This document shows positions 3,319 to 49,782 of a stretch of 64,000 nt of DNA, one piece after another. Position 1 is the first letter of the stretch, and every line of letters begins with the position of its first letter. The notes beneath the pieces were generated by a model. That model was not told the origin of the DNA, searched no databases, and saw only the letters and a program-made list of their open reading frames with translations. The position numbers and the translations under genes are program-made. This DNA is from Candidatus Latescibacterota bacterium (GTDB taxonomy: Bacteria > Latescibacterota > UBA2968 > SICM01), in assembly GCA_965217865.1 (NCBI GenBank), contig CBDCJO010000002.1, positions 4,544,001 through 4,608,000 of the forward strand. Reading direction: 5' to 3'.

Positions 3319-3720
3319 ATGAGCGGCCAGGTAGAACACGCAAATATCAAGGTTCGGGACATCGATGAGACGGTGAACTTTCTAACAACTGCCCTGCCGA
3401 ACTTCAAGGTTCGGGGGGGCAGTGATGAGCCTTCCAAGAAATGGGTTCACATCGGAACGGAATCGACTTACTTAGCCCTGAATGAAGACGGAAGAGGCAC
3501 ACAGAAGCAGGGGCCCGGTCTAAACCACGTTGGCTTCGTCGTGGATGATACGGATGCTGTTCGGGAAAGATTGGAAAAGGCGGGATTTAAGGAGGGCTAT
3601 GTGCCGGAAACCCATCCCCACAGGAGACGCGTCTACTACCTGGATGGCAGTGGTACAGAATGGGAATTCGTACAATACTTCTCAAACGATCCGGCTGAAC
3701 GCAACGATTATACGAGGTAG
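3319..3720 (+). CDS. VOC/glyoxalase family protein
   Basis: EHANIKVRD, LNHVGFVVDD, EWEFVQY motifs; AGGAGG RBS. Confidence 0.85.
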   Translation: MSGQVEHANIKVRDIDETVNFLTTALPNFKVRGGSDEPSKKWVHIGTESTYLALNEDGRGTQKQGPGLNHVGFVVDDTDAVRERLEKAGFKEGYVPETHPHRRRVYYLDGSGTEWEFVQYFSNDPAERNDYTR

Positions 3721-3902
3721 GTTGGATATTTCGATCCAACCAATTGCAGCCCCCGTTTAATGATTGTATTGCTTTTGTTCCTTAGAACTGGCACCTATGT
3801 GTTCCACCTTCGTCGATTCATCCTGCTGAGGGGTAGATTTTGAATACATTCCGAATTTGAAGCGGTTGAGTTTTCAGTCCCAATGAGTAGGGAGGCAAAA
3901 TC

Positions 3903-5345: not shown

Positions 5346-5389
5346 GAGGTCAAGGACTCCTATCCCAGGCCTCAATCTCTCGAATATCC

Positions 5390-7309
5390 CTACCCCCGAC
5401 CAATCCCCTCCGCTTTTATCCATTTTTCCACAATTTCCACAATATCCGGATCTTCCTTGACCCCCTCGAATTCCTTGAAATCCTCAAAATAGGCCCGGCA
5501 TTGTCCGCTCGTGACGAACTCTCCCGAGATGCTGCCTAACCGCTCCTTTGCCTCCTTTACACGGTCCAAAGCGAATAAAGATGCGGCGTTGCGGAGGGGC
5601 GCACTGAAGTAGACGTAGTCGATAAGTACGTCGCCCTGACCGTATTGAATCACGGACTCAAAGTATTGGACGGCCTTCCGGTAACGGCCTGTACGGTATG
5701 CGGCTTCCCCGGCATGGGCAAAGGACATCGTGAGGTGCCACCTTTCGTCTTTTGCTTCACGCTGCAAATCTTGATCGTCGGGATTTTCCTTTGTCCGGCG
5801 ATCTAATTTCTGCCAGTGGCCTTGGTGCTTTCCAAGCGCCCAATCCAGTTCATCGAAGGTAGACGATGGATCCAAACCGCCTTCGTGTTCCGCTCTGGCC
5901 ACAACTGAAGCCAGCATGTCGCAGATGTTCGACCAGCGCGCTTTCTCTCCTGTTAGTCCTTTGTGGAAGGGTCCGAAATCGAAGAGTTGTGGATCCTCCT
6001 CTGGAATTGCCTTTAGCCATTCCACAAATCCACAGCCTTCCCTGGCGGCTTTTTCCCACTGCTTCATCTCCAAAAAGATCCGGGAACGAACCTGATGGTA
6101 CAACCTCCTTCCATAGATGGACCAGTTGTCTCCGACGGCCTTCCCCAACTCTTCGATCTGTGACAGGGCTTCTTCAGCAGAACCTATTCGGGGATAGGCA
6201 ATTGTAATGGCGACTGAACACCACAGATGGAGTTTTTCTTGAGGATCCAAATCCTGAGGAAGAAGCGTCCGAGCACGGCGGTGGCACCTGACGACAGCCT
6301 CCAGGTCGTTGGCCCGATAATATCGATCGGTTGCTCTCCTGAGATATGCTATACTTTGTTCCTCGTCGCTTATCCCGTCCGCTGCTTTTTCTAGAAGCTC
6401 CCCGGCTTCGCGAAAGCGTCCAAATCTGGCGTAGAGGCCATCGAGTGTCCATACGAGCCGGTAGTCATTTCCTTCAAGCTGGTAGGCTCTTTCGAGCTCC
6501 CCAAAGGTATCTTTCAACAGGTTTCGGTCCCCGAATTCGGGATCCATCCGCATCAGCTCTCCAACTTCGCTGCTCAAAGCCAGGGCAAGCCCCCGCTGAG
6601 CCTCTGCGTGTCCGGGGTCGGCCTCTACGACTTTGCGAAATTCGTTTTTCGCCGCGGGAAATTTCCCCTCCTCCAGCAGTAGTTTTCCTCTATCAAGCGT
6701 CTTTTTAAAGACTTCCTCCGTAAAATTCTCAGGAAGCTTATAATCGCCAAGGGTCCCGTTCACCATTTTGACCATCCCCTCTTTCAACCGGGTACGGGCC
6801 CGGTAGAGTCTCTGGTTCACACTCTGGGCAGAAATTTCAAGGAATGAAGCGATTTGCTTCAAGGACATCGATTTCAAGTAGAACAGGACAACAACCTGTT
6901 GTTGTGGCCCGGTCAGATGGGCGATCGCATTCAGGACCTGTTGCCGGGTTTCTCGGGAATCCATCTCGCTCTCAGGACTGCTCGAAGAAGAGACGAGCAT
7001 TTCCTCGCGAACCTCATCCAGAGGCGCCGAACGGCTCTGTCGGCGCATCCACATCTTGCATTCGTTGATCGCGATTCGTCGCAGCCACGGTCCGAAGCGG
7101 TCCGCGCGAGGGAGGTCCTGGATCCTCAAGAATGAGGTGATGAAGGCCTCCTGTGCGGCATCTTCGGCAGCGTCGAAGTCCCGGGTATAGGCAGCGCAGA
7201 GCCCGAAGACCGCGTAGCGATATCGGTTTATGAGCTGCTCAAAGGCGCCGATGTCGACAAGGAGGAAGGCCTCAACGAGTTGTCCATCCGTTTTTTTGGG
7301 ATTTTTCAT
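5390..7309 (-). CDS. ECF sigma-70 factor with long C-terminal TPR-like extension
   Basis: sigma2 (AEDAAQEAF...FGPWLRRIAINEC) and sigma4 (SLKQIASFLEIS...RLYRAR) followed by about 450 aa of helical repeats; ATG at 7309 preferred. Confidence 0.85.
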   Translation of the reverse strand: MKNPKKTDGQLVEAFLLVDIGAFEQLINRYRYAVFGLCAAYTRDFDAAEDAAQEAFITSFLRIQDLPRADRFGPWLRRIAINECKMWMRRQSRSAPLDEVREEMLVSSSSSPESEMDSRETRQQVLNAIAHLTGPQQQVVVLFYLKSMSLKQIASFLEISAQSVNQRLYRARTRLKEGMVKMVNGTLGDYKLPENFTEEVFKKTLDRGKLLLEEGKFPAAKNEFRKVVEADPGHAEAQRGLALALSSEVGELMRMDPEFGDRNLLKDTFGELERAYQLEGNDYRLVWTLDGLYARFGRFREAGELLEKAADGISDEEQSIAYLRRATDRYYRANDLEAVVRCHRRARTLLPQDLDPQEKLHLWCSVAITIAYPRIGSAEEALSQIEELGKAVGDNWSIYGRRLYHQVRSRIFLEMKQWEKAAREGCGFVEWLKAIPEEDPQLFDFGPFHKGLTGEKARWSNICDMLASVVARAEHEGGLDPSSTFDELDWALGKHQGHWQKLDRRTKENPDDQDLQREAKDERWHLTMSFAHAGEAAYRTGRYRKAVQYFESVIQYGQGDVLIDYVYFSAPLRNAASLFALDRVKEAKERLGSISGEFVTSGQCRAYFEDFKEFEGVKEDPDIVEIVEKWIKAEGIGRG

Positions 7310-7402
7310 GAGTGCACTCAAATCATTAATGCACGAGGGATGCAAAATATAACGCTGAAGTGGAAATATTTTAGGGAAAGGCGAATCTGTATCATTTTTT
7401 CC

Positions 7403-7446
7403 TTGCAAATTCCTAAGAAATTAATTACATTACTAATTAATTAGTA
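7403..7446 (+). promoter_or_regulatory. Promoter (TTGCAA-17-TACATT) with perfect 16-bp palindrome TACTAATTAATTAGTA, probable BlaI-family operator
   Basis: Palindrome 7431-7446 abuts the -10 box upstream of the blaI-like gene. Confidence 0.6.
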
Positions 7447-7508
7447 GATAGGCCTGTGATAAAGTCTTTCGGAAACATCCAGGTCCATTAACCGGAGAAT
7501 CTCCGCAT

Positions 7509-7916
7509 ATGAAGAAAAGAATTGAAAAAGGCCTGTCGAGGGTCGAGTGGGAGATCATGGATGGCGTCTGGAAATTTCCCGACCGCGTAACGGTCCGAGA
7601 GGTTCACGGCTGTCTCTATCCAAAAGGGCAGAAGGCATACACAACCGTTCAGACGATCATGAACATTCTGGTCGAAAAAGGGTATTTGACCAAAGAGAAG
7701 ATCGGAATGGTAAACTTCTATCTCCCGACTACGTCACAGAAGGAGATGGCGCACAAGGAGGCCCGGTCCTTAGTGTCCAGGGCTTTCGATGGTTCTTTTT
7801 TCGCCCTGGCGAACTATCTTGTGGACTCAGGATCCCTTTCACAGAAAGACTTAAATCTTCTTAAAGGCCTAATCGAGGCGAAAGAGAGCGAAGGAAAGGG
7901 TAAAGGAAGGAGTTAA
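7509..7916 (+). CDS. BlaI/MecI/CopY family transcriptional repressor
   Basis: LSRVEWEIMDGVW...AYTTVQTIMNILVEKG...FDGS signature. Confidence 0.92.
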   Translation: MKKRIEKGLSRVEWEIMDGVWKFPDRVTVREVHGCLYPKGQKAYTTVQTIMNILVEKGYLTKEKIGMVNFYLPTTSQKEMAHKEARSLVSRAFDGSFFALANYLVDSGSLSQKDLNLLKGLIEAKESEGKGKGRS

Positions 7917-7917
7917 G

Positions 7918-9618
7918 ATGGATACGGTCCGACAGTTTTCCGAAGCCTGGATGCCGATTTTCGGGATCCATATGCTCGAGATCTCCGCCTTCATCCTCCT
8001 GGTGTGGATAGTTGATCGCTTCGTGAGATTGGATACTCGCCTGCGGTATCTGCTCTGGCTTTTGGCCCTGGTGAAAGTGTTCGTTCCTCCCGTTTTCTCT
8101 TTGCCAATGCTCACTCTAGAGCCGAACGCGTTGCCTGCACAAATCTCATTCCAGGCGATTGGTGTGAATCTCTCAGGATCTCAATTTTCACACGAAGCGA
8201 AGCGTTTTTCGCTATCCTGGTTTGTATTGATTACCTGGATGGCGTCCGTTCTCACTTTAGCTGGAATGGCGGTATTTCAAAATGTCGCCTTGCGACGACG
8301 CCTTCGGAATGGTATACCTGTCGAGATTCCGACCTCATACCTGCCCACCCATTCGTCCCAAACGGGTTTGCAGATCTTCACCGTCTGCACGATTCAGTCC
8401 CCGGTCCTTGTAGGACATCTCCGGCCCCGGCTCTACCTGCCGGAGGAATGGAAGACCTGGCCACATCTCCAACTTCGGGGGGTTCTCTCCCACGAAATTG
8501 CCCACCTCCGATTCTCTGACCGTTGGGTGATTGTCCTGCAGGCCCTTGCGCACATCCTCTTCGGGTTGAATCCTTTGGTTTGGTTGTTGTGTTCCCGTCT
8601 GGCATACATTCGTGAGCTCCGGTGCGATGAAACAGCCATCGAGGAATTGAACATCGATCCTGTTGACTATAGCAAACTGTTGTACGCCTTCATCCAGAAG
8701 CAGGTCCACGGGACTTTTCCAGTGACCACCGGAATCTCCTTTTTGGACAATCATCGTGCAATCCTTAAACGGTTTCACCACCTGCTTAATTTTCAAAAGG
8801 CCACGCGATCCAGGAAATCGTGGCACCCATTTACCCTGGTTATTCTGGCACTATTTATCTTTCCGTTTTCCGTGAAGGGGCGTGAGGAGAATCTAAAATC
8901 ACAAGACGATCTTCCCAAACGTGGAGAGTTCGTGCCTGTGGATACACAACCAATGCCCATATCTAAGCCTGCGGTAAAGTATCCGGAATCTGCGCTCAGG
9001 GACAGCATTGAAGGTGTCGTTTTTATTCATGTCCTGGTCGGAAAGGACGGTAAAACCCGTCAGGTAGAGGTAATCAGGGGTCCTGCCATCTTTCATGAGG
9101 CCTCCATCGCGTCGGCCGAAGCGATGGTCTGGGAACCGGCCACTCATAAAGGAGATCCGATCAGTGTTTGGATAGCATATCAAATCAGATTTAAATTTAG
9201 ATCTGATGGTTCTCCTTCTGCGATGGGGAGTGAGCGACCATCTAATTTCCTTAATCGAGGACCGGCCATTATGGTAGAGACGGAATCCGGCGATTCGATT
9301 CATGTAGATAAAATAGATAAAATGCCGTCACCGATCGGGAGTCCCAAACCCGTGTATCCGGAGTCAGCAATTAAAGACAGTCTGAATGGGCTTGTTGTCA
9401 TTCAACTCCTTGTCGGCAAAGATGGGCGGGTAAAAAAAACCAGGCTGCTCGAGGGAGAGGAACCATTCTCTAGCGCGGCGATCGAAGCAGGCAAAAAGTC
9501 TATCTGGGAACCTGCAATATATAAAGGAAAACCGGTGGGGGTGTGGGTCGCATTTCCGATTAGGTTTATAATGAGCCAAAGTAAGCAACGGGGGGTTATC
9601 CCACCCAACGGGGATTAA
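7918..9618 (+). CDS. M56 (BlaR1-like) metallopeptidase fused to two TonB C-terminal domains
   Basis: TM segments, HEIAH zinc motif, NPLVW...RELRCDE; two YPESA..D..G.V....LVGKDG...WEPA..KG.P..VW repeats. Confidence 0.88.
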   Translation: MDTVRQFSEAWMPIFGIHMLEISAFILLVWIVDRFVRLDTRLRYLLWLLALVKVFVPPVFSLPMLTLEPNALPAQISFQAIGVNLSGSQFSHEAKRFSLSWFVLITWMASVLTLAGMAVFQNVALRRRLRNGIPVEIPTSYLPTHSSQTGLQIFTVCTIQSPVLVGHLRPRLYLPEEWKTWPHLQLRGVLSHEIAHLRFSDRWVIVLQALAHILFGLNPLVWLLCSRLAYIRELRCDETAIEELNIDPVDYSKLLYAFIQKQVHGTFPVTTGISFLDNHRAILKRFHHLLNFQKATRSRKSWHPFTLVILALFIFPFSVKGREENLKSQDDLPKRGEFVPVDTQPMPISKPAVKYPESALRDSIEGVVFIHVLVGKDGKTRQVEVIRGPAIFHEASIASAEAMVWEPATHKGDPISVWIAYQIRFKFRSDGSPSAMGSERPSNFLNRGPAIMVETESGDSIHVDKIDKMPSPIGSPKPVYPESAIKDSLNGLVVIQLLVGKDGRVKKTRLLEGEEPFSSAAIEAGKKSIWEPAIYKGKPVGVWVAFPIRFIMSQSKQRGVIPPNGD

Positions 9619-9757
9619 TCAAAAATCCGCGTCTAAAACAAGCGTAGAGCTCTTCAGCGGATGGGACCGCGAAATTTTCACGACGTACCCACAAGTAGCT
9701 TATCAATTTAACAATTTGCACTTTCCATTTTTCATTCTGCATTTCCCTTCCTCCCTC

Positions 9758-10567
9758 TCAACTCCCAGTCGACTGATAGTGCCGCACACCCACCTTCCAC
9801 GCCTGCAGCGCCCCGATCAGGAAAAGAAAACCCACCAGAGGTGCTATCCATCCGAGAAATGACGGCATGCCTAGCGGATCCTGCCGGTCCATGATCGCCA
9901 ACCCGGGAAAGTAGTTTGCGAAGGCCAGGGGTACCCCATAGGTAAAAAACTTCCTGAACCACGATCGGTAAATGGAGAGGGGGTATTGTGCGGATTCCAC
10001 GCCCCCATAGGTGAGGGTGTTCATGATCTCAAGGGTTTCCGTGGTCCAGAACGCAAGGATGGCCTGGAGAACCATCAGGGCGTAAAAGAAGCAAGCCCCC
10101 CCGAAGACTGTTGAAACCGCCAGCCCGATCTTAAGCGGTGTCCATACAATCTCAAGCTCCGACGCGGCCCATATGAGGACCGCTACGCCTTGAAGCAGTC
10201 TTCCTATTCTGCGGACCACCAATTCTTTCCCCGCCAGTTGGAGTGTGGTGCTCCTGGGTCTTAAAAGAAGACGGTCGAAGTCCCCGGCCTTGACCATATC
10301 CCCAAAGGTATCGAACCCGCGGCATGTCGCGTCGGCCAGAGCAAACGACACGTTCACAATCCCATAGAACAGCGCCACTTCCTCCAATGCCCATCCCGCG
10401 AGACTTCCGAAACGGTCAAAAAGGGCCAGGATGCCCAGGAATTCAACCCCGGTCGCCAGGAACTGTCCGATCGACTGCATCACGAAAGAGGCGCGGTACT
10501 GCATCTGGCCCCGAAAGGAGATTCCAATGTATCGAGTATAGAGCCGAGCTGCGTTCAGCATCTTCAT
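9758..10567 (-). CDS. ABC-2 family transporter permease
   Basis: YRASF, GDFDRLLLRP, YPLSIY, C-terminal YQSTGS; ATGA overlap with upstream gene. Confidence 0.9.
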   Translation of the reverse strand: MKMLNAARLYTRYIGISFRGQMQYRASFVMQSIGQFLATGVEFLGILALFDRFGSLAGWALEEVALFYGIVNVSFALADATCRGFDTFGDMVKAGDFDRLLLRPRSTTLQLAGKELVVRRIGRLLQGVAVLIWAASELEIVWTPLKIGLAVSTVFGGACFFYALMVLQAILAFWTTETLEIMNTLTYGGVESAQYPLSIYRSWFRKFFTYGVPLAFANYFPGLAIMDRQDPLGMPSFLGWIAPLVGFLFLIGALQAWKVGVRHYQSTGS

Positions 10568-11355
10568 CCTCCTTGAACAACCAACCGGCGCGTACCCCGT
10601 GCCAACAGGCGGTGACCCAGTAGGATCAGCCCGAGGGACCAGGCGACCTGGTGCGCGAGCACGGATGCGGCCTGAGAAGGCGGAATGTGTCCTGAATAGA
10701 GACGGAAGGGTAGATCCACGAGACCCCGGAAGGGCATGAACGCGATGATGGTCTGGGCCCAGTCCGGGAAGAATGGCAGCGGAACGAGCATCCCCGAAAG
10801 CACCCATAGGGCACTGGGAAGAAGATGCTGGACTCCGTCTCCCGAGATCGTCCACAGGAGGGAGATGTTGATCAGAGTCGACAAGGCGCAGCTCAAAAGA
10901 AGCGCTCCTGCGCTTGCGACAATCCAGGCAATTCCAGCGGACCAGGAGTCCGGGGGCTGAAGGCCCAGGAATACGCCTGCCACCAGGAACAGGGGGAGGG
11001 CGCGCAGGAGTGTGGGTGCGGTTCTGTTGGCCAAGGACCGGGTGAACCAGTAGGCGTAGAGACCCACGGGCCGCAGAAGCTCATACACGACTGTGCCCTC
11101 GCGAACCATGGTGCGTCTATCCCTGTCAGCGTTCCAGGGAAGCATTCCGAACAGGGCCTGCCCGAGCCAGATGTAGGTGACGACGTCCGGATAGGCCATC
11201 GGCTGGGTGGCCGATGACGAACGGTAGAAGGCATCGAAAATCATCACGCGTATGAGCCCCCAGAAAAGCTGGGTGCCGCATCCGGCGATCGCCGCACCCC
11301 GATACTGAAGGAGGGTCCGAAACCTTGTGCTCACGAGTGACCAGTAGGATTTCAT
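10564..11355 (-). CDS. ABC-2 family transporter permease
   Basis: Multi-TM; YELLRPV, SGMLVPLPFFPDW, C-terminal VVQGG. Confidence 0.9.
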   Translation of the reverse strand: MKSYWSLVSTRFRTLLQYRGAAIAGCGTQLFWGLIRVMIFDAFYRSSSATQPMAYPDVVTYIWLGQALFGMLPWNADRDRRTMVREGTVVYELLRPVGLYAYWFTRSLANRTAPTLLRALPLFLVAGVFLGLQPPDSWSAGIAWIVASAGALLLSCALSTLINISLLWTISGDGVQHLLPSALWVLSGMLVPLPFFPDWAQTIIAFMPFRGLVDLPFRLYSGHIPPSQAASVLAHQVAWSLGLILLGHRLLARGTRRLVVQGG

Positions 11356-12335
11356 CCTTTTTCCTCTTCATAAAGACGTGCGATGATCTCCTCGATCGGG
11401 GGGTTCTCCACGAAGAGATCCTGAATCGCATAGTTCGCCGCGATTCGACCGATCAAGGCCGCTGCGGAGACGCGACATGGGTCGAAACTCAGGTGAACCC
11501 GGTGGCCCTCCCGGCGGATCACGCTTGCGTCCGGGTCAACGATTTGCTGGCTTTCGTCGACGAGGTCCACGGTCAGCCATCTCTCCCGGGTGACTCGCGA
11601 CCGGAGGTCCTCCAGCGTGCCGTCGGAGAGGACTTTTCCCCCGCTGATCACGAGGACCCGTTCGCAAAGGGTTTCGATATCGTCCATGTCGTGCGTCGTT
11701 AGGATCACGGTGACGCCGCGCTCTCGGTTGAGCTTCTTGATGAAGTCCCGCACCGCGAGCTTGGACACGGCGTCCAGGCCGATCGTGGGTTCGTCCAGGA
11801 ACAGGAGTGTGGGCGCGTGCAGAAGGGAGGCGGCCAGGTCGCAGCGCATCCGCTGTCCGAGGCTGAGCTGGCGCACCGGGACGTTCAGGAGGGGTTCCAG
11901 GTTCAGCAAGGCGATCAGCTCGTCTCGCGCCCGGACGTATTGACCTTGGGATACGCGATACACGTCGCGGAGCAGGTCGAACGATTCGATGACGGGAAGG
12001 TCCCACCAGAGCTGTGTTCGCTGACCGAAGACCACGCCGATCTCCCTCACGGTCGGGATCCGTTCCTTCCACGGTGTTCTGCCCAGGACCTCGCAGCGGC
12101 CCGAATCGGGAACCAGGATTCCGGAAAGCACTTTCACGGTTGTGGACTTCCCCGCTCCGTTCGGACCGATGTAACCGACCAGCTCCCCGGGGTTCAGGGA
12201 AAAGGAGACCCGGTCGAGGGCGCAGACCACACGATGGCGACGATGGACCACACCCCGAATCGCCCCCCACATACCCGGATTCCTTTCCGGGATGCGGAAG
12301 GTTTTGACAAGGTCTTCGACGAGGATGAGTGACAT
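11352..12335 (-). CDS. ABC transporter ATP-binding protein
   Basis: Walker A GPNGAGKST, LSLGQRMR signature, LFLDEPT. Confidence 0.95.
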   Translation of the reverse strand: MSLILVEDLVKTFRIPERNPGMWGAIRGVVHRRHRVVCALDRVSFSLNPGELVGYIGPNGAGKSTTVKVLSGILVPDSGRCEVLGRTPWKERIPTVREIGVVFGQRTQLWWDLPVIESFDLLRDVYRVSQGQYVRARDELIALLNLEPLLNVPVRQLSLGQRMRCDLAASLLHAPTLLFLDEPTIGLDAVSKLAVRDFIKKLNRERGVTVILTTHDMDDIETLCERVLVISGGKVLSDGTLEDLRSRVTRERWLTVDLVDESQQIVDPDASVIRREGHRVHLSFDPCRVSAAALIGRIAANYAIQDLFVENPPIEEIIARLYEEEKG

Positions 12336-39506: not shown

Positions 39507-39646
39507 GATCGACTCCTTTGAAGATTGTAGACTGAAGATTAATGATTTAGGTAATTAGCAGATTAAGGCTTGACTTTCAGTCCCTTTTTGGTTATATTAA
39601 GTGTAATGAAAACAATTAACTTAACCAAAAAAAGGGAGATAGGAAA

Positions 39647-40531
39647 ATGAACTTGTTGACGGCGATTGAAAAGTTCCCGACGCAGGAATCATGCATTGAG
39701 CATCTTGAGCGGGTAAGGTTCAGAGATGATCCGTTTTGTCCGCTGTGTGGGGCGGTTGGTGAGTGTGCCAGAAAGAAAGAGGGAACTCTTGTGGGGCGTT
39801 GGAACTGCCATGCCTGCGGGTCCAGCTTCAACGTTCTTTCGGGGACAATGTTTCAGGGTACGCATCTTCCGCTCCAGAAGTGGTTTATGGCAATCGCCTT
39901 GATCATCAACGCCAAGAAGAGCCTGTCCAGCTGCCAGCTTGCCCGGGACCTGAACCTTAACCAACGATCTGCATGGTATGTGCAACAGCGGATTCGCGCC
40001 GAGATGGCGACGAGGCAGGGGAAGATATTATTGCGAGGGATCGTCGAGGCAGACGAGACCTACGTTGGAGGCAAGCCACGGAAACGGAACAAGCGGTCAG
40101 GCGGTGGCAGCGCTCCCAGGGGGCGCGGAACCCGCAAGACTCCGGTTATAGGAGCCGTTGAGCGTGGAGGGAAGGTAGTTGCCCGTGTGGCGGACGATCT
40201 GTCTGGTAAGGGGGTTCTGGCCTTCGTCAAGCAGGCGATAGACCCTTCGGAAGAATCTGTGCTTATTACGGACGAATTCAGTTCCTACAGCGCAGTAAGG
40301 CAAATCATGAGTCATGCGGTGATCCACCACGCCAGGCATTACGCGGACGGTGATATACACACCAACACGATCGAAGGCGTGTGGTCCCTGCTCAAGAGAG
40401 CGTGGTACGGTTCACATCATCACTACACGAAGCGTTATACGCCGCTCTACGTGGCCGAAGCCTGCTACAAATACAACAACCGAAAAAACAAGCGGACGTT
40501 TGATACGTTCATGAAAGGGTGCTTCGCATAG
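39647..40531 (+). CDS. IS1595 family transposase (element A), intact
   Basis: N-terminal Zn ribbon CPLC...CHAC, EADETYVGG, TDEF, HTNTIEGVWSLLKR. Confidence 0.95.
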   Translation: MNLLTAIEKFPTQESCIEHLERVRFRDDPFCPLCGAVGECARKKEGTLVGRWNCHACGSSFNVLSGTMFQGTHLPLQKWFMAIALIINAKKSLSSCQLARDLNLNQRSAWYVQQRIRAEMATRQGKILLRGIVEADETYVGGKPRKRNKRSGGGSAPRGRGTRKTPVIGAVERGGKVVARVADDLSGKGVLAFVKQAIDPSEESVLITDEFSSYSAVRQIMSHAVIHHARHYADGDIHTNTIEGVWSLLKRAWYGSHHHYTKRYTPLYVAEACYKYNNRKNKRTFDTFMKGCFA

Positions 40532-40553
40532 CTTAAATTTGGAGGTTAAGTCA

Positions 40554-40712
40554 ATGACCAATATTGAAATAATCAACAAGACGAAGACACAGGACCCGTC
40601 CATCAAAAATATTGGGTCAAACGTCTTCGTCACAATCGTTGATCGTCACGACAAGAGCCTGAGTTCCAATTATGATCGAGATCTCCGATCCGTCGGAAAT
40701 CAGGTTCATTGA
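40554..40712 (+). CDS. Small hypothetical protein (52 aa), possibly a degraded passenger gene
   Basis: GGAGGT RBS then ATG; MTNIEIINKTKTQDPSIK... Confidence 0.3.
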   Translation: MTNIEIINKTKTQDPSIKNIGSNVFVTIVDRHDKSLSSNYDRDLRSVGNQVH

Positions 40713-40847
40713 AACAACACCATATTCCCCACAATAGATCGAGATTCGGCATGGCTTCGAGGACTCGCTTTTCAATCTTAAAACTGATCCTGGTTCGGCA
40801 TTGAAAGATGCCATTTGGGTCTCCAGTAGACGCCCCCGCGTACATTT

Positions 40848-42024
40848 TTACCTCATTCCATCTGTGCCTGTTAATGCCGGTTTACTTGCTGGGTAGTATC
40901 CGAAGCGCCCGGCAATCTCCGCCACGTATTTTTGCCACATGGACGGCGTCCTTAGATACCAGCCATGAAGGTACGTCCCAAAATCCTGATTCTGGTTCCA
41001 TGAAACCGGTCCTTGAATATTCAGATAGCGGACAGCGTTCCACGCCTCCGGGTTGGTCTCGAAAATATCAATCAGATTGTGGGCGATCATATCGTTGGAT
41101 CTTCGGAGGTAAGGATTTTCCGATAATCCGGGAAGTCGCGCCTCAAACCACGCCCTGAATTGTGCCGCATCCATTCTCTGGCCGGGGATATTTTGTTCTG
41201 CATAGGGCAGGAGACGATTCATCATAGAATGAAGATACCATGTCGTGTTTTGGCTTGGAACATATACGTTGAGAACAGCGCCTGCCAAGATCTTCTCATG
41301 TATCTTCCTCAAAACGTACAATGAGGCCATACTTGATAGAGATTCATCAAACCATTTATTCGGTCCGCTTCGCACCTGATAATAGTTACTCATCAAGTGA
41401 CCATATTCATGGGCGAACTGAAAGACGTTTTGCTCGACATTAGTATTTTCCGTGTCTAACCAGATCACGTAAGAACCGGTTGGGGTGCGTGAGTATAGAA
41501 CTTTCGGACCCTCCGGTTCGACATGCCGAACGACTATATCAGAATCGAGAGCATAAATCAGTGGTTCTGACAAGGTTTTCTGAACACTCTTACAGACCGC
41601 TTGAACAAGTTCAACTGGTTGGCGCCATCCTCCAGGTTCGACGGTGATCGATGGCAATAACTTGGGACGAGTACGAGTGGGAGGAGATCCATCTCTATAA
41701 ACCGTTTCAATGATTGGCGCTGAAGGAGTAACAAGAACCGTTGTGTCTCTTACTACAAAGGTATCCAGAACCACATTATCGACGAACGTTGTATCTCTTA
41801 CCAGAAGGGTATCCAGAACCACACGATCGACGATCGTTGTATCTCTTACTACAACGGTATCAACTTCAACGGATTCAGGGTCGAAGATCTCCCCGCCCGA
41901 CTTTCCGAAATTGGAAGAAAATATGAAGAAGTCTTCAAGGTTTACCTCGCCGTTACCGTCCAGATCGCCGATCAGCCTTTCCTGAGCCGTTGCGGCCGCA
42001 AGCCATGTAACTACAAAAAAAACA
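40848..42024 (-). pseudogene. Passenger gene of element A: secreted dockerin-like, repeat-containing HEXXH protein, cut after about codon 11 by element B (5' piece at 49242-49275)
   Basis: Joining 49275-49250 to 42024 gives in-frame MRKVLIIVSVFFVVTWLAAATAQ-ERLIGDLDGNGEVNLEDFFIFSSNFGK...FAHEYGH; AAGGAGGT RBS upstream of ATG 49275. Confidence 0.85.
41740..41864. repeat. Coding tandem repeat, about 2.6 x 48 bp (VVLDTxxVRDTTxVDx)
   Basis: GTTGTRTCTCTTAC...GGTATC unit repeated with 48-bp period. Confidence 0.85.
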
Positions 42025-42053
42025 GGGATTGCGTAGTTCGGGGCTTATAGGGC

Positions 42054-43670
42054 TTAAGCATTTAAGCGAAGCTCGGGCTGTTTCATGCCTCTTCCCACCA
42101 CGGCCGGAGTATCGAATTTCTTTCCCTCAAGAATTTCGTGGACGTTCAGCATCTGAAGGCGGGGATAGGCTGCGCTACCGATTTTCACGTCTCCCGCTCT
42201 GGCCATGAGGCGGTGAAAGTTGCGGGTTTTTGTCTCCCCCAAGGGATCCATGATAATCAACCCGGCCATCATTGCAAGGTCGTTGTCCAGGACCCCGCAT
42301 AAGGCGCGGAGGTCCCGAATCGATACGTTTTGTCCGCCCTTTACCTCAATGGCCATGTTATGCAAATCTCGTTTTCCTGGGCAATCGAAATACAATCGCC
42401 CATCGATCCCGCCGTCCGCCGTCCGCTTCGTGGTTACAAAACCATCTACTTCCTCAGTGGCCCATTTTTGAAAATGATAAGTGTCCCGTTCCCACAGGTC
42501 TTTCGCCCCTTCGGTGTTACGGGGCACACCTTCGATTTTGTAGTCTTGACCTTCGACCAGGCCCAGCTTGTCACGCAGCCTAAAAGCTGCTACGCGCTTG
42601 ATGGCATGTATGGCTATGTCAATACCTATCCACCGGCGTTTGAGTCTGTGGGCCGCTTCCAGCGTTGTAGCGCACCCACAAAAGGGATCGAATACGACAT
42701 CTCCATCAATGGAGCTGGCCTTGATGATGCGTTCAAGGAGTGCGAGCGGTTTCTGTGTGGCGTAGCCCATCCGTTCGGAAGACGTATTGGGAATTCTCCG
42801 TATATCGGTCCATATGTTTTGCAGTTGCTTGCCAGGTGCTTCATCCATATAGACCTTTAAGCCGTCCATGCGTGGCGTTCCGTCTCGCTTGGTCTGTATA
42901 CGTCCTTCTTCCCACCAAGATTCAAGTTGTTCGCGTCGATAACCCCAACAGCGCGTATTGCCGGGCCTTGTTCCTCGCCATTCAAATCTATCACGACCGG
43001 AAGTCGGCGCAGTCAAGTCGTCAAGTCTATATTTTCGTCCAGTGCTGTCAACATGTCGAAATCGGCCCAATTGCGCCTCTCCATAAGGCTGATATTGTGG
43101 ATTCCAGGTTGTAGTCCGGGAGTTTGAGTAGTACAATATGATGTCCGCAACATTACCGTATTTCCTGGCGTTGTTATGGCTTTCGGTCCTTTGCCAAGTG
43201 ATTTCATTTCTGAAATTCTGATGTCTGAAAATACCGTCCATCATGACTTTGATGTAGTGGGATGCGGTCGGATCACAATGCAGGTAAATCGAACCTGTTG
43301 GCTTCAGGATGCTTTTCATGTGGAGTAGGCGTTCAACCATATACGAGAGGTAGGCCAGCAAGCGGGGTTGTGTTTCTCTCAAGGCTTTCATCCACAGGTG
43401 CCAGAAAGCAGCTATGCTGTCATCAACACCGGATTCCCGCATTAATACAGGCATGGTTCTGATCGCTCGTTCACGCTCTTCATCCAGCGTCCATAGATCA
43501 CAGAAGGCATCAATCTGGTCCGGCAATGGTCGGCCCGTCCCATCCTTATAGATCGCATTGTAAGCCCGGTTGGAGTTGAATGGGGGATCGAGATAAATCA
43601 GGTCTACGCTGTCTTTCTTCATATATTCCTGCATGACCGTCAGGCAGTCGCCGTAATAGAGTTTGTTCAC
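42054..43670 (-). CDS. Beta-class N6-A/N4-C DNA methyltransferase fused to C-terminal Mrr-like PD-(D/E)xK endonuclease domain (cargo of B)
   Basis: LIYLDPPF near N-terminus, FDPFCGCATT near C-terminus, then DGGIDG...IEVKGG; GTG 43670 overlaps the transposase TGA. Confidence 0.88.
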   Translation of the reverse strand: MNKLYYGDCLTVMQEYMKKDSVDLIYLDPPFNSNRAYNAIYKDGTGRPLPDQIDAFCDLWTLDEERERAIRTMPVLMRESGVDDSIAAFWHLWMKALRETQPRLLAYLSYMVERLLHMKSILKPTGSIYLHCDPTASHYIKVMMDGIFRHQNFRNEITWQRTESHNNARKYGNVADIILYYSNSRTTTWNPQYQPYGEAQLGRFRHVDSTGRKYRLDDLTAPTSGRDRFEWRGTRPGNTRCWGYRREQLESWWEEGRIQTKRDGTPRMDGLKVYMDEAPGKQLQNIWTDIRRIPNTSSERMGYATQKPLALLERIIKASSIDGDVVFDPFCGCATTLEAAHRLKRRWIGIDIAIHAIKRVAAFRLRDKLGLVEGQDYKIEGVPRNTEGAKDLWERDTYHFQKWATEEVDGFVTTKRTADGGIDGRLYFDCPGKRDLHNMAIEVKGGQNVSIRDLRALCGVLDNDLAMMAGLIIMDPLGETKTRNFHRLMARAGDVKIGSAAYPRLQMLNVHEILEGKKFDTPAVVGRGMKQPELRLNA

Positions 43671-43904
43671 GCAAAGCACCCCCGAATGAAGGCGCCGAAC
43701 GTGTTGTCGTTCTTTCTGTTGTTGTACTTGTAGCAGGTTTCGGCAACAAAGAGGGGCATGAACTTCCTGGTATAGTGGTGATGCGAACCATACCAGGCAC
43801 GCTTGAGCAAAGACCAGACTCCTTCAATCGTGTTGGTGTGGATGGAGCCATTGACATAGGTTTCCGAGTGCTTGACAACCGAATGCCTGAATGTCTTTTG
43901 AATT
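43667..43904 (-). pseudogene. 3' fragment of element B IS1595 transposase
   Basis: FRHSVVKHSETYVNGSIHTNTIEGVWSLLKRAWYGSHHH...GCFA*; in frame with the 48507 side after removing element C. Confidence 0.9.
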
Positions 43905-43952
43905 GGTGATTATGCACTTGACTAAGGTTGGCAGGTTTGGTAAATTGATGGG

Positions 43953-44471
43953 ATGGAATGGAAAAGTGTTTTTCGGAACCCGCTTTGCGCCTTGTCGGTG
44001 CTGGCTATGTTCGCAGGTTTACTGGTCGATTTTCAGGGGGCGGCGTCTAAAATGGCACGAGCTATTCCCCTAATAGAAGCCTTACTGCCATTGATAGCCC
44101 TTGGGGGGGTTACGTTCTTTGGGTTGTGGTCAATATGGGCGGTTCCATCATTCTTCTGGGCGCGTCGCCCTGCTGCCAAGTTTGGAACAAATTACTATTT
44201 CATAGTGAAATGCCGCAATGCCGTTGAAGGTCGCATTATCGGCATATTGGACAACAATTCTCACTTGTATGCCGGAATGACGGAACTTTCCAATACGTTG
44301 AGTCGATTCCGAATCCAATGTCCCAATATAAATCCTGACGATAAATATTACGCAGTAGTATGGTTCAACTTTCTTGCACAATTAGCGCCATTGGCACGGC
44401 ACGATGATTTGTACAATGCACGCAAACTTGGATTACGGGGAAATGAATCACATGACCGAACCCAACTTTAA
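43953..44471 (+). CDS. Hypothetical membrane protein (cargo of C)
   Basis: 172 aa, two hydrophobic N-terminal segments; downstream of TIR promoter; overlaps the methyltransferase start. Confidence 0.6.
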   Translation: MEWKSVFRNPLCALSVLAMFAGLLVDFQGAASKMARAIPLIEALLPLIALGGVTFFGLWSIWAVPSFFWARRPAAKFGTNYYFIVKCRNAVEGRIIGILDNNSHLYAGMTELSNTLSRFRIQCPNINPDDKYYAVVWFNFLAQLAPLARHDDLYNARKLGLRGNESHDRTQL

Positions 44472-45621
44472 GAACCGCACGATATGGACGGGCGACAACC
44501 TGGACATCATGCGTGGCATGAACTCCGAAAGCGTTGATCTGATCTACCTTGATCCGCCCTTCAACTCCAATCGCACCTACTCCGCGCCCGTAGGAAGCAA
44601 GGCGGCGGGGGCTGCCTTCAAGGATTCATGGTCGTTATCCGATTTGGATGTTGCCTGGATGGGGATCATTGCCGACAAACATCCGGGCATGTATAAGGTT
44701 CTGGAAGCGTCTGGCGTCGCTCACGGAAAAGGGATGCAATCCTATCTTTGCATGATGGGTGTCCGAATCCTTGAAATGCATCGTCTCTTGAAGCCTGCGG
44801 GGAGCATCTATCTTCATTGCGATCCCACGGCCAGTCACTACCTCAAGCTGCTTATGGACGCGGTATTCGGGCAGGAAAATTTTCGGAGTGAGATCACGTG
44901 GCGCCGTACCAATGCGAAAGGATTGGCGTTCAAGAGCTACCCGAACAACGCTGACTTTCTGTTGTACTACAGCAAAGCCGAATCTTTTACGTGGAATCGT
45001 CCATTTCGCTCCCATGATCCGACCTATTTAAAAAAATTTTACCGACATGTTGATCCAAAAACCGGACGGCGCTATCTACTCGACAATCTGGCGAACCCGA
45101 ACTCGGATCGCCCTAATTTGACATACGAGTTTCTCGGAGTAACCAGAGTTTGGCGTTGGACACGAAAACGAATGCAGAAAGCCTACGAACAGGGTCTCGT
45201 TGTGCAGCAACGTCCGGGTGCAGTTCCAAGACTCAAAAGGTATTTGGATGAGATGAAAGGCGCCCCGGTTGATACGATTTGGGACGATGTAAAGCCAGTA
45301 CAGGCTCAATCCGGGGAGCGCATCGGCTATCCCACCCAGAAGCCCCTTGTCCTCCTGAACAGGATCATCCAGGCAAGCAGCGACATCAACGATATGGTCA
45401 TGGACCCATTCTGCGGATGCGCAACGACCTGCGTGTCGGCGGACAAGCTGAACCGCCAATGGGTCGGAATAGACATCTCGCATAAAGCTTCCGAGCTTGT
45501 CAACATGAGACTTCAATCGGAATTGGGAGACCTTTATCATTCCCGCCTGGTTGCGGTCCGAACCGACGTTGTATCTATTCTGAGATAACAAGAGAAAAGC
45601 AGATAAAGGTCCAAGCAAGAT

Positions 45622-46653
45622 TCAGGCAGCCTTGTGGATGGTCTGGGATGTTCTTTGCCGATTGATTTCTATGCGGCGCTGCCGAGCCTCCTCCTTTCGA
45701 CCTTGTCGGTGGTGAAGAATCTTTTGATGCTGGCCTTTATGCCTCTGAAGAGGCGTGACATACTGTATTGCCCCGTGATAGCGTTCGGCGTTGTAGCTGT
45801 GAATGAAGGAATCAATCAGGCCTTCCAGTTGATGGAATGTGAAGATGTCCTGGAAGCGCAGCCAGTCGTATTTGAATGTCCGGAAAAAGGCTTCGATCCA
45901 GGCGTTGTCCGTGGGTGTTTGATATCGGGCAAACAGCTGCGAGATGCCCAGGTCCTTGAAGAATTGGGCCATCGATTTGGCCTTCATCTGAGATCCGTGA
46001 TCTGAGAGGGCTGTCAAGCTTATGGGCCCAGTGTCCAGGTCCAGCAGTCCTTCGTTGGCAAGGGCTTGATCCCAGGCCTGTTTGACCTGCTCCACGGTCG
46101 CGTTGAAGGAGAGCTTCCATCCTACGATCTTCCTGGAATACACGTCGAGAATGGCGGTAAAATACAGGAACAAACCGAAAAATGGGATGTAGGTCAGGTC
46201 CCAGCTCCAGACCTGATTAGGACCTTCAGGTTTGACCTGGGGCTTGCTCTGCTTGACCGGCGTCCTCACCTGTTTCCTGCGTGCCAGACGTTCTTTCCTG
46301 GCCTGTCGGTAGAAGCTGGAGGCCGAGGCCTGCACTACCCCCTTCTCTGAGGCTACCACCGCCAGCTGATGGGGAGGCAGATCGGCATAGGTCTCATCCC
46401 TTAAGAGGGCCGGGATTTGCTCTTTCTCCTCCCTCAGCAATCCGTGTGGGGCCTCATCAGGGGCGGGCCCGGGCTTCCCATCCAAAAGCGGGTCCGACAC
46501 CCCATCCAGCTTCTCTTCTCGATCTCGCCGGCTCCAGGCACAATACCGCTGGAGGGGAAGCTGTAGGATCTCGCAAGAACGGGTGAGTTTCACCCCTTTC
46601 TCCTTGGCCCGATGGACCATTAAGAGGATCTCGCGTTTGACCTCAGCTTGCAC
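45622..46653 (-). CDS. IS3-family transposase OrfB (rve integrase core)
   Basis: PNQVWSWDLTY, DVYSRKIVGW, SDHGSQ, DNAWIEAFFRTFK, YNAERYH. Confidence 0.92.
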   Translation of the reverse strand: MQAEVKREILLMVHRAKEKGVKLTRSCEILQLPLQRYCAWSRRDREEKLDGVSDPLLDGKPGPAPDEAPHGLLREEKEQIPALLRDETYADLPPHQLAVVASEKGVVQASASSFYRQARKERLARRKQVRTPVKQSKPQVKPEGPNQVWSWDLTYIPFFGLFLYFTAILDVYSRKIVGWKLSFNATVEQVKQAWDQALANEGLLDLDTGPISLTALSDHGSQMKAKSMAQFFKDLGISQLFARYQTPTDNAWIEAFFRTFKYDWLRFQDIFTFHQLEGLIDSFIHSYNAERYHGAIQYVTPLQRHKGQHQKILHHRQGRKEEARQRRIEINRQRTSQTIHKAA

Positions 46654-46676
46654 CCGGTGGCCCTTGATCGGGCCTG

Positions 46677-47012
46677 TCAGATCCCATTCACACTTTTTTT
46701 TAGCAGGGAAAGTTCCACAGATTGCTCAATGATCGTTTGCTCCAGGCGTGCCCGCTCTTTGCGCAGCTGCTCCACCTCCTCAGCCGATACCATCGGCTTG
46801 CGGCTCCGGCGACCCTTGAACTCCTTGAGGGCCCCGGACTTGACCGACTCACGAATACGCTTTAGATCCGAGGAATGAATGCCCCATTTCCGCAGCACCT
46901 GTGCAATGGGAACATCTCCCCGGCTGGCTTCAAGGAAAATCTCATACTTCTGTTCCGGGGACAAGCTCCTGCGCTTCTTGACCGGGTCACTGTTTGAGGA
47001 CAGTTGCTCCAT
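46677..47012 (-). CDS. IS3-family transposase OrfA (HTH)
   Basis: SPEQKYEIFLE...QVLRKWGI, coiled coil; A8G slippery site at 46701-46693 fuses to orfB by -1 frameshift. Confidence 0.85.
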   Translation of the reverse strand: MEQLSSNSDPVKKRRSLSPEQKYEIFLEASRGDVPIAQVLRKWGIHSSDLKRIRESVKSGALKEFKGRRSRKPMVSAEEVEQLRKERARLEQTIIEQSVELSLLKKSVNGI

Positions 47013-47399
47013 CTTTACTCCTCCTGTGAGGTCAGGGATATCCCAAAATATGTATCCCTTCTCAACCCTACAGGCAACCAGGATCTTGCTTCGACCTTGC
47101 CCCCGTTTTTTCGGGCGATCTCAGACAAAAGATAACGTTCCAAAGCGCACTGACTTGGGCGAACTTCCCGATTACCGAACGTACAAGCATATCCTGTTCG
47201 GCAAGCAGGAAGGAGTATGCGGTGGTTGTCGTTCAACGTTCCAGTTCAGGAACTTCACGGTGGATCATATCGTACCCAAAATCAAAGGAGGAACCAACCA
47301 CCAAGACAACCTGCAACTGCTCTGCGGAGCCTGTAACAGCTTGAAAGGTGATAGGCCGCAAGCCTATCTGGTGGCGAGATTGAAAGGCTTGGCCACACC

Positions 47400-48293
47400 T
47401 TAGGCCGCCGTCAGGTTCCGGTACGTGATGTTGTCCGTGTTCATGATCCGGCGAAGCGTATCGTGGAACAGGCGAGGATTGTTACGATTGTTGAACCTCC
47501 ATTCAAGCTCTTCAAGATAACGGTCCATATGCTTAGTGCTCATCTTGTGAAACGTCCCTACGATGGAACGCTTGAACAGGGACCAGACGCCCTCGACGCT
47601 GTTGGTGTGCACGTCGCCGACAACCCATTGCTCTTCGGAATGCCTGACGGTTTCATGACGGGTGTCATGGTCCTCGACTCCGAGATAGGATTTCAACTCG
47701 TCCGTGTAAATGGCTTCCGCTTCGTCCTTGACGGTTCGCCGGATAAAGTCATGAAGCGTCTGGCGTCTGACGTTGGAGATGCGCTCGATTCGGATGTTTC
47801 CGCCCCTCTGGACGGCCCCTGCGATCCAGGTTTTGTTTCCCTTGTAGGCGCGCCCCTTGTTCTTTGTCCTGCCTCCTACAAGCGTTTCGTCCACTTCCAC
47901 GACGCCGAGCAGCGTCGGCCCCTCAAACGGATCGTTGCCCATAGCCTTCCGGATTCTGTGGCAGAGATACCAGGCCGACCGGTAGGCGACGCCGAGCGTT
48001 CGTTGAAGTTGAAGCGCGGAGATGCCTTTTTTGGATTCGCACATCAGGTAGATCGCCAGGAACCATTTGCGAAGCGGCAGATGAGAATCATGCATGATGG
48101 TCCCGGACATAACGCTGAACTGGTACTCGCATGACCGGCATTCCCACAGGTTGTAATCGTGAAGCTCGTTTACCCCCGTGTCTCCGCAGCGCGTGCAACA
48201 TACGCCGTTCGGCCAGCGGATGCGCTCAAGGGCTTCCCTGCACTTCCCGTCATTGCCGAACCGGTCAATCAAGGAGATAATATTGACGTCCAT
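47400..48293 (-). CDS. IS1595 family transposase (element C), intact
   Basis: RWPNGVCCTRC...CRSC, EVDETLVGG, YTDE, HTNSVEGVWSLFKR, WRFNNR. Confidence 0.95.
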   Translation of the reverse strand: MDVNIISLIDRFGNDGKCREALERIRWPNGVCCTRCGDTGVNELHDYNLWECRSCEYQFSVMSGTIMHDSHLPLRKWFLAIYLMCESKKGISALQLQRTLGVAYRSAWYLCHRIRKAMGNDPFEGPTLLGVVEVDETLVGGRTKNKGRAYKGNKTWIAGAVQRGGNIRIERISNVRRQTLHDFIRRTVKDEAEAIYTDELKSYLGVEDHDTRHETVRHSEEQWVVGDVHTNSVEGVWSLFKRSIVGTFHKMSTKHMDRYLEELEWRFNNRNNPRLFHDTLRRIMNTDNITYRNLTAA

Positions 48294-48444
48294 GGATCAC
48301 ACTCCTAAGAAGAAGAAGAAATTGCCTAAGGATTTCGCCGAGCGGACCGACCACGAGCTCATGGAGCTGCTTTTCGGAAAACAGGTCATGAAAGCCGTTG
48401 ACAAGATCGTCGATGACCGGTCACAAGACTTTGACAGTAAGTAA
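48292..48444 (+). CDS. Small 50-aa ORF divergent from transposase C
   Basis: MDHTPKKKKKLPKDFAERTDHELMELLFGKQVMKAVDKIVDD...; ATG interlocks with the transposase ATG (CCATGG). Confidence 0.35.
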   Translation: MDHTPKKKKKLPKDFAERTDHELMELLFGKQVMKAVDKIVDDRSQDFDSK

Positions 48445-48506
48445 GTAACGTCGTCCATAGACTTAATATAACAATATTCTTATCCTTAGTCAAGTGCATA
48501 ATAACC

Positions 48507-49144
48507 TTTGAATTGCGTTGTAGGATTTGAATTCATCTGTCACCAGCAAGGAGCCGTCGGGCTTGACGGTCTTTTTGATGAACGCCATGACGCCTTTGCC
48601 CGAAAGGTCGTCTGTGACCCGGGCAACAACGTTTCCACCACGTTCAACGGCGCCTATAACCGGCGTTTTCTTTGTTCCTCTGCCTCTCGGGCGGGGGGGG
48701 GGTAGATGATCTCTTTCTGCCACCGACGTAGGTCTCGTCCGCTTCAACAATACCTTGCAGCAACAGAAAACCCTCTTTGCGTGCCATTTCCGCCCGTATG
48801 CGTTGTTGCATATACCAGGCCGACTTGTGATTCATTCCAAGGTCACGGCCCAACTGGTGGCTCGACAGGCTCTTCTTGGCGTGCATGACAAGTCCGATGG
48901 CAAAGAACCAGTCCTGCAACTGAAGCTTGGTGTTCTGGAAAATCGTGCCGGAAAGCACATTAAAACTGGCCTTGCATGAATGGCAGTTCCAACGTCCGAT
49001 TCTGTTGCCATCGGCTTTGCGGGCCACGTGGCCAACAACACCGCAGAGCGGGCAGTAAGGCTCATCACCAAAACGGACCTTTTCGAGATGCCTGATGCAC
49101 GATTCTTGATTGGGGAACCGCGCGAAGATTTGATGAATGGTCAT
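48507..49144 (-). pseudogene. 5' part of element B IS1595 transposase; additional frameshift in G10 run 48693-48702
   Basis: MTIHQIFARFPNQESC...CPLC...EADETYVGG, then RGRGTKKTPVIGAVERGG...TDEFKSYNAIQ in another frame. Confidence 0.9.
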
Positions 49145-49289
49145 TGCAACAACTCCTTTGTGGGGCTTGATGTTTGGTTGCCGAATGCTTATAATATAAG
49201 CAATCCAACCCCGATTGTCAAGCCCCAATCTACGCAATCCCAAAAAACAGATACTATAATTAAAACTTTCCGCATTTATCCCACCTCCT

Positions 49290-49470
49290 TGATGAGTAGT
49301 TTTGGCACCTGCCAAAAGAAGGTGCCGGGTAGAACCACCAATCACGCAGAGAGATGATGCGGGAAGGGTCCTGCTTATTCGCCGAACCGGGTTGCAAGGC
49401 CGGCTCTGGTGTTGTTGGCTATTATATTCGGCAGGCTACCCGACATGCGGGACTGCCTGATTGGTGGTAC
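49290..49470 (-). promoter_or_regulatory. Structured 5' leader of the element A passenger gene
   Basis: 16-bp long-range stem 49334-49349 / 49453-49468 (1 mismatch) enclosing further stems; lies between the TIR promoter and the RBS. Confidence 0.5.
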
Positions 49471-49782
49471 GTGGAATATAACCAACTCAGGACCGAAAGT
49501 CAAGCCTTAATCTGCTAATTGCGATGATTTATAGTCGAACCACCAGTTTTCCTGATGGCTCTTATTTATCTCGATTATCCTAAATATATAAATAAAGCCC
49601 CAGGAGAAGAATCAAGGGTTCTTGCCGGGAATCCTCCTGCCGGATTTGGATTCGATTCGTGACTTGACATCAACACCATGATTGGGTATCGTAGTGAATA
49701 TATTGTGTCTTCCATACGAAGCACCACATGTCCTTGTATTGGGTCGGTTGTGTAGTATGAAATCCCCTGGAAGAGGTCCCGC

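Follow-up and report, generated by a model that had tools for sequence, protein, structure and literature searches.

A four-level nest of cargo-carrying IS1595 elements and an IS3 element in a Candidatus Latescibacterota genome

Results

Structure of the nest

We analysed a 64,000-nucleotide stretch of DNA from a Candidatus Latescibacterota bacterium (GenBank assembly GCA_965217865.1, contig CBDCJO010000002.1, positions 4,544,001 to 4,608,000), hereafter the window, in which three transposable elements of the IS1595 family, termed A, B and C, and an insertion sequence (IS) of the IS3 family lie one inside the other. All four have separate inverted ends and are flanked by exact target duplications (Table 1). 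The first 24 bases of the ends of A, B and C match at 20 to 22 positions, and the IS3 ends are a more imperfect match. A sits in host intergenic DNA, an AT-rich gap between a peroxiredoxin-like gene and a gene of 1535 aa, which we take to be glutamate synthase.

In silico excision of the inserts left cores of 2749 (A), 2607 (B), 3033 (C) and 1565 bp (IS3) and opened frames over the junctions: 400 aa for the cargo gene of A, 476 aa for the methylase-HNH gene of C and a stretch of 184 codons in the transposase gene of B. An earlier note, made from the letters of the window alone, had described such a four-level nest, and its ends and duplications were found as it had placed them; its family assignments were borne out by profile matches, and the passenger genes that it expected of IS1595 elements are present in A, B and C. 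Its statement that excision rejoins the broken frames holds for the cargo genes of A and C but not for the B transposase, which is still frameshifted by a run of ten G. The nest is confirmed as a real and unusually deep arrangement of known parts.

Table 1. Features of the nest in window coordinates.
Feature	Position	Strand	Remarks
Left target duplication of A	39542..39549	.	ATGATTTA; right copy 49524-49531; empty site in run X8
Element A, IS1595 transporter IS	39550..49523	+	2749-bp core, flanks ATGATTTA/ATGATTTA
Sigma-70-like promoter match, A left end	39570..39598	+	faces transposase; consensus match only
A transposase, 294 aa, open	39647..40531	+	zinc ribbon; D136, D209, E243 motifs; PF12762, PF12760, NF033547 above cut-off
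A cargo, 3' part	40848..42024	-	split by B at codon 11; 400-aa frame after excision
Element B, IS1595 transporter IS	42025..49241	-	2607-bp core, duplication AAAAAACA
B cargo, N6/N4 DNA methyltransferase + Mrr-like nuclease domain, 541 aa, open	42054..43679	-	PF01555
B transposase, 3' part	43667..43904	-	
Element C including its IS3	43905..48506	-	4602 bp, 3033-bp core, duplication TTTGAATT
C cargo 1, 172 aa	43953..44471	+	hydrophobic N-terminal half, no family match
C cargo 2, 5' part, N6/N4 methyltransferase domain	44452..45569	+	PF01555; parted from HNH domain by IS3; 476-aa frame after excision
IS3-family element	45570..47134	-	1565 bp, duplication ACGT
IS3 orfA; orfB	46677-47012; 45622-46653	-	A8G run at overlap
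C cargo 2, 3' part, HNH nuclease domain	47135..47403	+	PF01844, PF14279 above cut-off
C transposase, 297 aa, open	47400..48293	-	PF12762, PF12760, NF033547 above cut-off
B transposase, 5' part	48507..49144	-	frameshifted at G10 run 48693-48702
A cargo, 5' part	49242..49275	-	first 11 codons, signal-peptide-like
Sigma-70-like match, A right end	49503-49475	-	faces cargo; consensus match only

Contigs from other sequencing runs

The region or part of it occurs in 15 public sequencing runs, with no RNA run listed among them; eight were compared, all as contigs, and one of these eight may be the assembly's own source. Contigs of two studies bridged the A-left, A|B, C|B-right, B|A-right and A-right junctions without differences. 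Both outer junctions of A were bridged in run X1, with 33 letters inside the element in each case, the A|B junction in runs X1, X2, X4 and X5, and the right C|B junction in X4, which reaches 102 letters into C; contigs in X1, X2 and X3 extend over position 49241, the right B|A junction. The left B|C junction was crossed by 29 letters only, below the threshold of 31, and the filled-form IS3 junctions were bridged by no contig among the pieces listed for the eight runs.

Alleles lacking parts of the nest were also found. Run X8, from a third study, contains a joint of 39541 to 49524 with 8 shared letters, which is the empty A site in a related strain. Runs X2, X3 and X6 join 45565 to 47135, giving the C cargo gene without IS3. 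In X5, a joint of 41915 to 49323 passes over B without matching its exact ends; a paralogue of the A cargo gene may be its source. Comparison of the region with 30 related genomes, none of the same genus, yielded partial matches only (63-91% identity), with no stack and no orthologous site.

Element C has moved together with its IS3

A second copy of C with its IS3 (C::IS3) lies at G000:C2:312143-316744 of the same genome, outside any IS1595 element, where it differs by one base in 4602 and is flanked by its own duplication (TAAGAAAT). Because this second copy has its own duplication elsewhere, C::IS3 has transposed as a unit, which bears out the earlier suggestion that IS1595 elements are able to move while carrying another IS. 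Consequently, the nest needs only two same-family nestings, B in A and C in B, and not the three successive insertions that had been proposed, A being placed in host DNA. With one base of difference between its copies C::IS3 is recent, and the inner pair likely arrived together. The only difference between the two copies (position 48428) lies in a 50-codon open reading frame (ORF) with a lysine-rich start (48292-48444, plus strand) at the transposase end of C.

Target choice of the IS1595 elements

The genome carries 48 matches to the IS1595-type transposase profile PF12762 and 152 IS1595-type ends, which form 57 pairs; 45 of these pairs are bounded by a duplication, defined as one with at most one mismatch. 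The 45 duplications are 83% A+T, in line with the AT-rich 8-bp duplications that had been expected, and hold no other strong motif. A target profile built from them places 3.1% of its weight in IS1595 DNA, which makes up 1.3% of the genome.

Two of the 45 insertions, B and C, are nested in IS1595 DNA, against 1.4 expected from the AT-weighted profile (P 0.41) and 2.7 expected when the null is limited to non-coding plus IS1595 DNA (P 0.76). Multi-copy DNA amounts to 12% of the genome. Insertion into multi-copy DNA of other kinds was observed once among the 45 (about 2.4 expected), and two of the 38 IS3 copies, representing one event, lie in IS1595 DNA (P 0.38). Under the genome's own profile the site taken by C ranks 5 of 2587 in B and the site taken by B ranks 85 of 2729 in A, and the three targets of the stack share no common sequence beyond A+T richness. 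Preferential targeting of IS1595 elements by one another, or of a shared safe site, is thus not supported, and the comparison with an AT-matched background that the earlier note had called for gave, at low power, no nesting enrichment, the outcome by which that note would be refuted.

Nests in other genomes

The closest named relatives of the transposase are from metagenome-assembled genomes (MAGs) of Latescibacterota, Poribacteria and Caldilineaceae, which are sponge associates. We compared 61 loci with an A-like transposase, several of them from one genome and some with short flanks. A second IS1595 transposase was present within the fetched flanks of one locus, L048 of a Caldilineaceae MAG, which is a true nest: its outer element (8088 bp, AAACCAAA), also with methylase cargo, contains a pair of IS3-like ORFs and an inner element (2446 bp, TAGTTAAT). 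The inner element has five sister copies, none of which is nested or has a second transposase nearby. Cargo varies among relatives with near-identical transposases, and a methylase of this family follows the transposase in 12 of the 61 loci.

Ten other genomes were searched with PF12762, close transposase pairs (within about 5.5 kb) were picked by eye, and seven such regions were fetched with three reference regions. Of the seven (L072 to L078), five showed a clear arrangement: L072 is a true nest, L075 contains neighbours in tandem, L076 and L077 contain pairs in inverted orientation, and in L078 the duplications of two elements are swapped. In L072 an A-like element, with L080 as its empty form, has taken up a 1133-bp element that belongs to a high-copy family; four close pairs were inspected in its genome, G011, which has 81 transposase matches, and L072 alone of these is a nest. 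Each of the four nests known here has a different insertion point: signal-peptide codons, the middle of a transposase gene, a transposase stop and a site near the far end. Two-deep IS1595 nests therefore recur at low frequency and in differing positions.

Among the other close pairs, L076 and L077 (G012:C1:514000-525000 and 1530000-1541000) are IS1595 pairs that face each other in inverted orientation across about 2.7 kb and are bounded by long inverted repeats. In L078 (G034:C1:2678000-2694000, positions 3491-11969), two related IS1595 elements have swapped target duplications, as expected after an element-bearing circle recombines into another copy.

Cargo genes and condition of the elements

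Element A is present once in the genome and has at least 12 relatives with other cargo and 86-91% DNA identity over the transposase end. Its cargo likely encodes a protein that is secreted and combines short repeats with an HEXXH metallopeptidase-like domain, as judged from a weak Peptidase_M78 match and from Atlas clusters of the peptidase MA/M64-like kind (0.96-0.97); its N-terminal motif presumably resembles a dockerin-like calcium-binding repeat. The genome has two paralogues of nearly full length (59-69% identity), at G000:C1:322735-323886 and G000:C2:3263974-3265014, both away from any IS1595 end, and the A cargo may for this reason be a captured host gene. The right end of A reads CGC and not GG; that it is damaged was considered and rejected, since multi-copy relatives have CGC at both ends. 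Two further A-family structures were observed. A 47-bp near-perfect palindrome of two A-family ends, flanked by the 7-bp repeat TTATTTA, lies at G000:C1:432502-432548 and appears to be a minimal element or a deletion remnant. At G000:C2:3670489-3674882, another IS with a 466-aa transposase lies between the methylase-HNH cargo of an A-family element and its own transposase; the methylase frame ends at 322 aa, pieces of the element also occur near 3358142 and 3584753, and its flanks form no duplication, which suggests that it is rearranged.

Element B is likewise a single copy. Its cargo gene contains the motifs DPPF, FxGxxT, GGID and IEVK, and its Mrr_cat match is below the cut-off, whereas that of the relative L053 is above it. 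The pieces of the B transposase pass PF12760 and PF12762; after excision of C, the run of ten G at 48693-48702 shifts the frame, with a stop at 166 aa. This run has a gap-free contig match in four runs, and one contig (depth 3.4, run X6) is one G shorter. Its relatives L011 (2610 bp) and L014 (2631 bp), from Bauldia and Acidobacteria MAGs, are unbroken and agree with B in size and layout. For B, the PADLOC matches are to methylase models only. An inward sigma-70-like match, by consensus only, is found in five of the six IS1595 ends and is absent from the left end of B. Because of this absence, and because the methylase frame overlaps the transposase stop, the insertion of C would part the B methylase from the B promoter. 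With the cargo gene of A and the methylase-HNH gene of C both split, the stack holds one whole candidate restriction-modification (RM) gene, that of B, and its expression is doubtful.

The transposases of A and C are about 35% identical. The methylase-HNH cargo family of C (window 44452-47403) is found on both A-type and C-type elements, also at G000:C2:651746-654387, 1809778-1812419, 4039344-4042258, 5530183-5533097 and 3670489-3674882, with 51-61% identity in the methylase part and 70-75% in the HNH part. That such distant transposases carry the same cargo family suggests cargo exchange between IS1595 lineages. In this genome, each of the nine long methylase matches (at least 35% identity) falls within an IS1595 element or at its end. 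The genome also has short non-autonomous elements that combine C-like ends with 8-bp duplications and form three families (about 232, 345 and 775 bp), for example at G000:C2:454583-454814, C2:238449-238793 and C2:869386-870160; the 775-bp type contains a 208-aa ORF.

Elements of the IS3 family produce duplications of 3-5 bp and have 5'-TG...CA-3' ends. The innermost element here matches NF033516 with 172.5 bits (cut-off 160), PF00665 and, weakly, HTH_Tnp_1. Its orfA (helix-turn-helix) and orfB (rve, DDE) overlap in the -1 phase with a slippery A8G run, and frameshifting is predicted. One of its ends is TG; the other, upstream of the transposase, reads TA in every full copy listed. The genome contains 38 full-length copies, many with duplications of 4-5 bp and many others with non-matching flanks, a sign of recombination between copies.

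Discussion

The nest has probably arisen from ordinary, independent jumps into AT-rich 8-base targets, through a combination of AT preference, a high element load and tolerance. The IS1595 elements would prefer AT-rich sites without target immunity, and about 3% of such sites would lie in IS1595 DNA, where insertions would be tolerated because only passenger or transposase genes are broken. A would have entered the host gap, B would then have hit codon 11 of the A cargo gene, and C, probably with IS3 already inside, would have hit the B transposase gene. A and B are probably the older layers, both being single copies and B being decayed. Either copy of C may have been the donor, so that IS3 may instead have entered C inside the nest, with C::IS3 copied out afterwards. 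Since each nesting step disabled a gene of the host element, the stack would be more of a sink than a built device.

Several observations weigh against this explanation. The 45 sites under test also served to build the target profile, and the gene calls were crude. The 95% interval for two of 45 is 0.5-15%, so that the test is weak and an enrichment of up to about fivefold is compatible with it. If an unpaired A-type end inside an 897-bp element (C2:1262074) is counted, three of 46 insertions are nested (P 0.17 or 0.52). Both nested insertions among the 45 belong to one stack, and in simulated sequential insertion any three-deep IS1595 stack appeared in 0.5-2.3% of genomes under the whole-genome null and in 1.6-8.7% under the non-coding null, a range of 0.5-8.7% that depends on the null and on the element number. 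Gaps of less than 1 kb between neighbouring elements numbered three against 0.9 expected (P 0.06). Finally, the intermediate states that the earlier note had proposed to look for were found in part: the empty site was present in X8, but A alone or A with B was absent among the joints listed in the eight runs, and for that reason the order of A, B and C is deduced from geometry.

Part of this evidence could instead reflect a moderate preference of IS1595 elements for other IS1595 DNA, through end-bound transposase or open, promoter-bearing DNA, that would raise stacks above chance. The small simulated probability of a three-deep stack, the room for about fivefold enrichment, the slight excess of close neighbours and the nests in two other genomes (L048, L072) all agree with it. 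We nevertheless regard it as rather unlikely: the nested insertions are about as many as expected, the second copy of C and the five sisters of the inner L048 element lie outside IS1595 DNA, and the insertion points of all four nests differ. In addition, stack depth is the one uncommon feature, and the window was chosen as unusual from very many, so that an event of 1 in 10 to 1 in 200 would be expected to appear.

It is quite unlikely that the stack, or A with B inside it, was built elsewhere and arrived as one transposon by means of the A ends, as a mobile compound cargo unit. The A transposase frame is open and the A ends match the family, C::IS3 is a nested unit that can move, the duplication-bounded 8-kb element of L048 exists, only the fully empty and fully filled forms of the site were seen, and there is no other copy of B in the genome. 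Against this, the genome contains no second copy of the whole 10-kb stack, intermediates were sought in eight contig sets only, and the near identity of C::IS3 to its same-genome copy favours local entry of at least C; moreover, the A cargo and the C methylase-HNH gene are split, and the B methylase is separated from the promoter match in the B transposase end. Movement of the whole stack is possible, to judge from the usable-looking A transposase and ends, but the single copy gives no hint of it. The defence island envisaged earlier fares poorly, with two of the three main cargo genes split, only the methylase-nuclease frame of B whole, the B transposase frameshifted as well and the stack present once. 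We consider it improbable that IS1595 elements stack on purpose and that an outer element with working ends carries the stack, such that methylase-nuclease and secreted-protein cargo accumulate in mobile islands without integrases, even though C::IS3 has moved as a pair, nests recur in two other genomes and the counts would allow about fivefold enrichment. An assembly artefact of repeated elements, at which the 9.3% contamination of the genome and the absence of a contig piece covering the whole stack in the eight runs would hint, was rejected as extremely improbable on the basis of four distinct exact duplications, the rejoining frames, the contigs of two studies that bridge junctions and the empty site in a run of another study.

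Compared with published accounts, the parts of the nest are familiar and its arrangement differs. The definition of transporter IS of the IS1595 family includes passenger genes, which transposition does not require (TnCentral preprint 10.1101/2021.05.26.445724; PMC11891212), and A, B and C each share with these a zinc-ribbon DDE transposase, inverted ends, an 8-bp duplication and passenger genes; here, three different transporter IS are stacked around an innermost IS3, and nests of IS1595 in IS1595 do not appear in the passages of the preprint that were consulted. In E. coli, an engineered IS1 is reported to insert within IS DNA at about chance frequency (PMC12065110), to which our case is alike in that nested insertions occur at about the expected number, without target immunity, and nested parts can move on; unlike that single engineered element type, three natural IS1595 lineages and an IS3 form four levels here. 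In PMC2853133, inverted repeats are reported to enclose RM genes in transposon-like units that have 8-bp target duplications and, in a relative, an empty site. The present elements share RM-type genes, inverted repeats, the 8-bp duplication and an empty site with those units, and differ in that each has its own IS1595 transposase, that the cargo is a single-chain methylase-nuclease fusion and that they are known from sequence alone. L048 and L072 show the same IS1595-in-IS1595 arrangement with 8-bp duplications, at only two IS1595 levels and with other insertion points. No report of IS1595-in-IS1595 nests was found in the literature searched, which consisted of listings and the starts of abstracts and left most subscription papers outside; the passages of PMC9208149 that were consulted contain nothing on nesting.

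The locus offers a clean natural IS nest, documented by an empty site, an allele that lacks IS3 and two locations of one nested pair, and shows that a cargo-carrying IS1595 element still moves with a 1.6-kb passenger IS inside. The size limit and the target choice of IS1595 transposition could be tested on it, and it is of use for annotation, where split genes and inner duplications mislead pipelines. If self-targeting in pooled data or movement of the whole stack proved true, this would constitute a new route to mobile defence islands.

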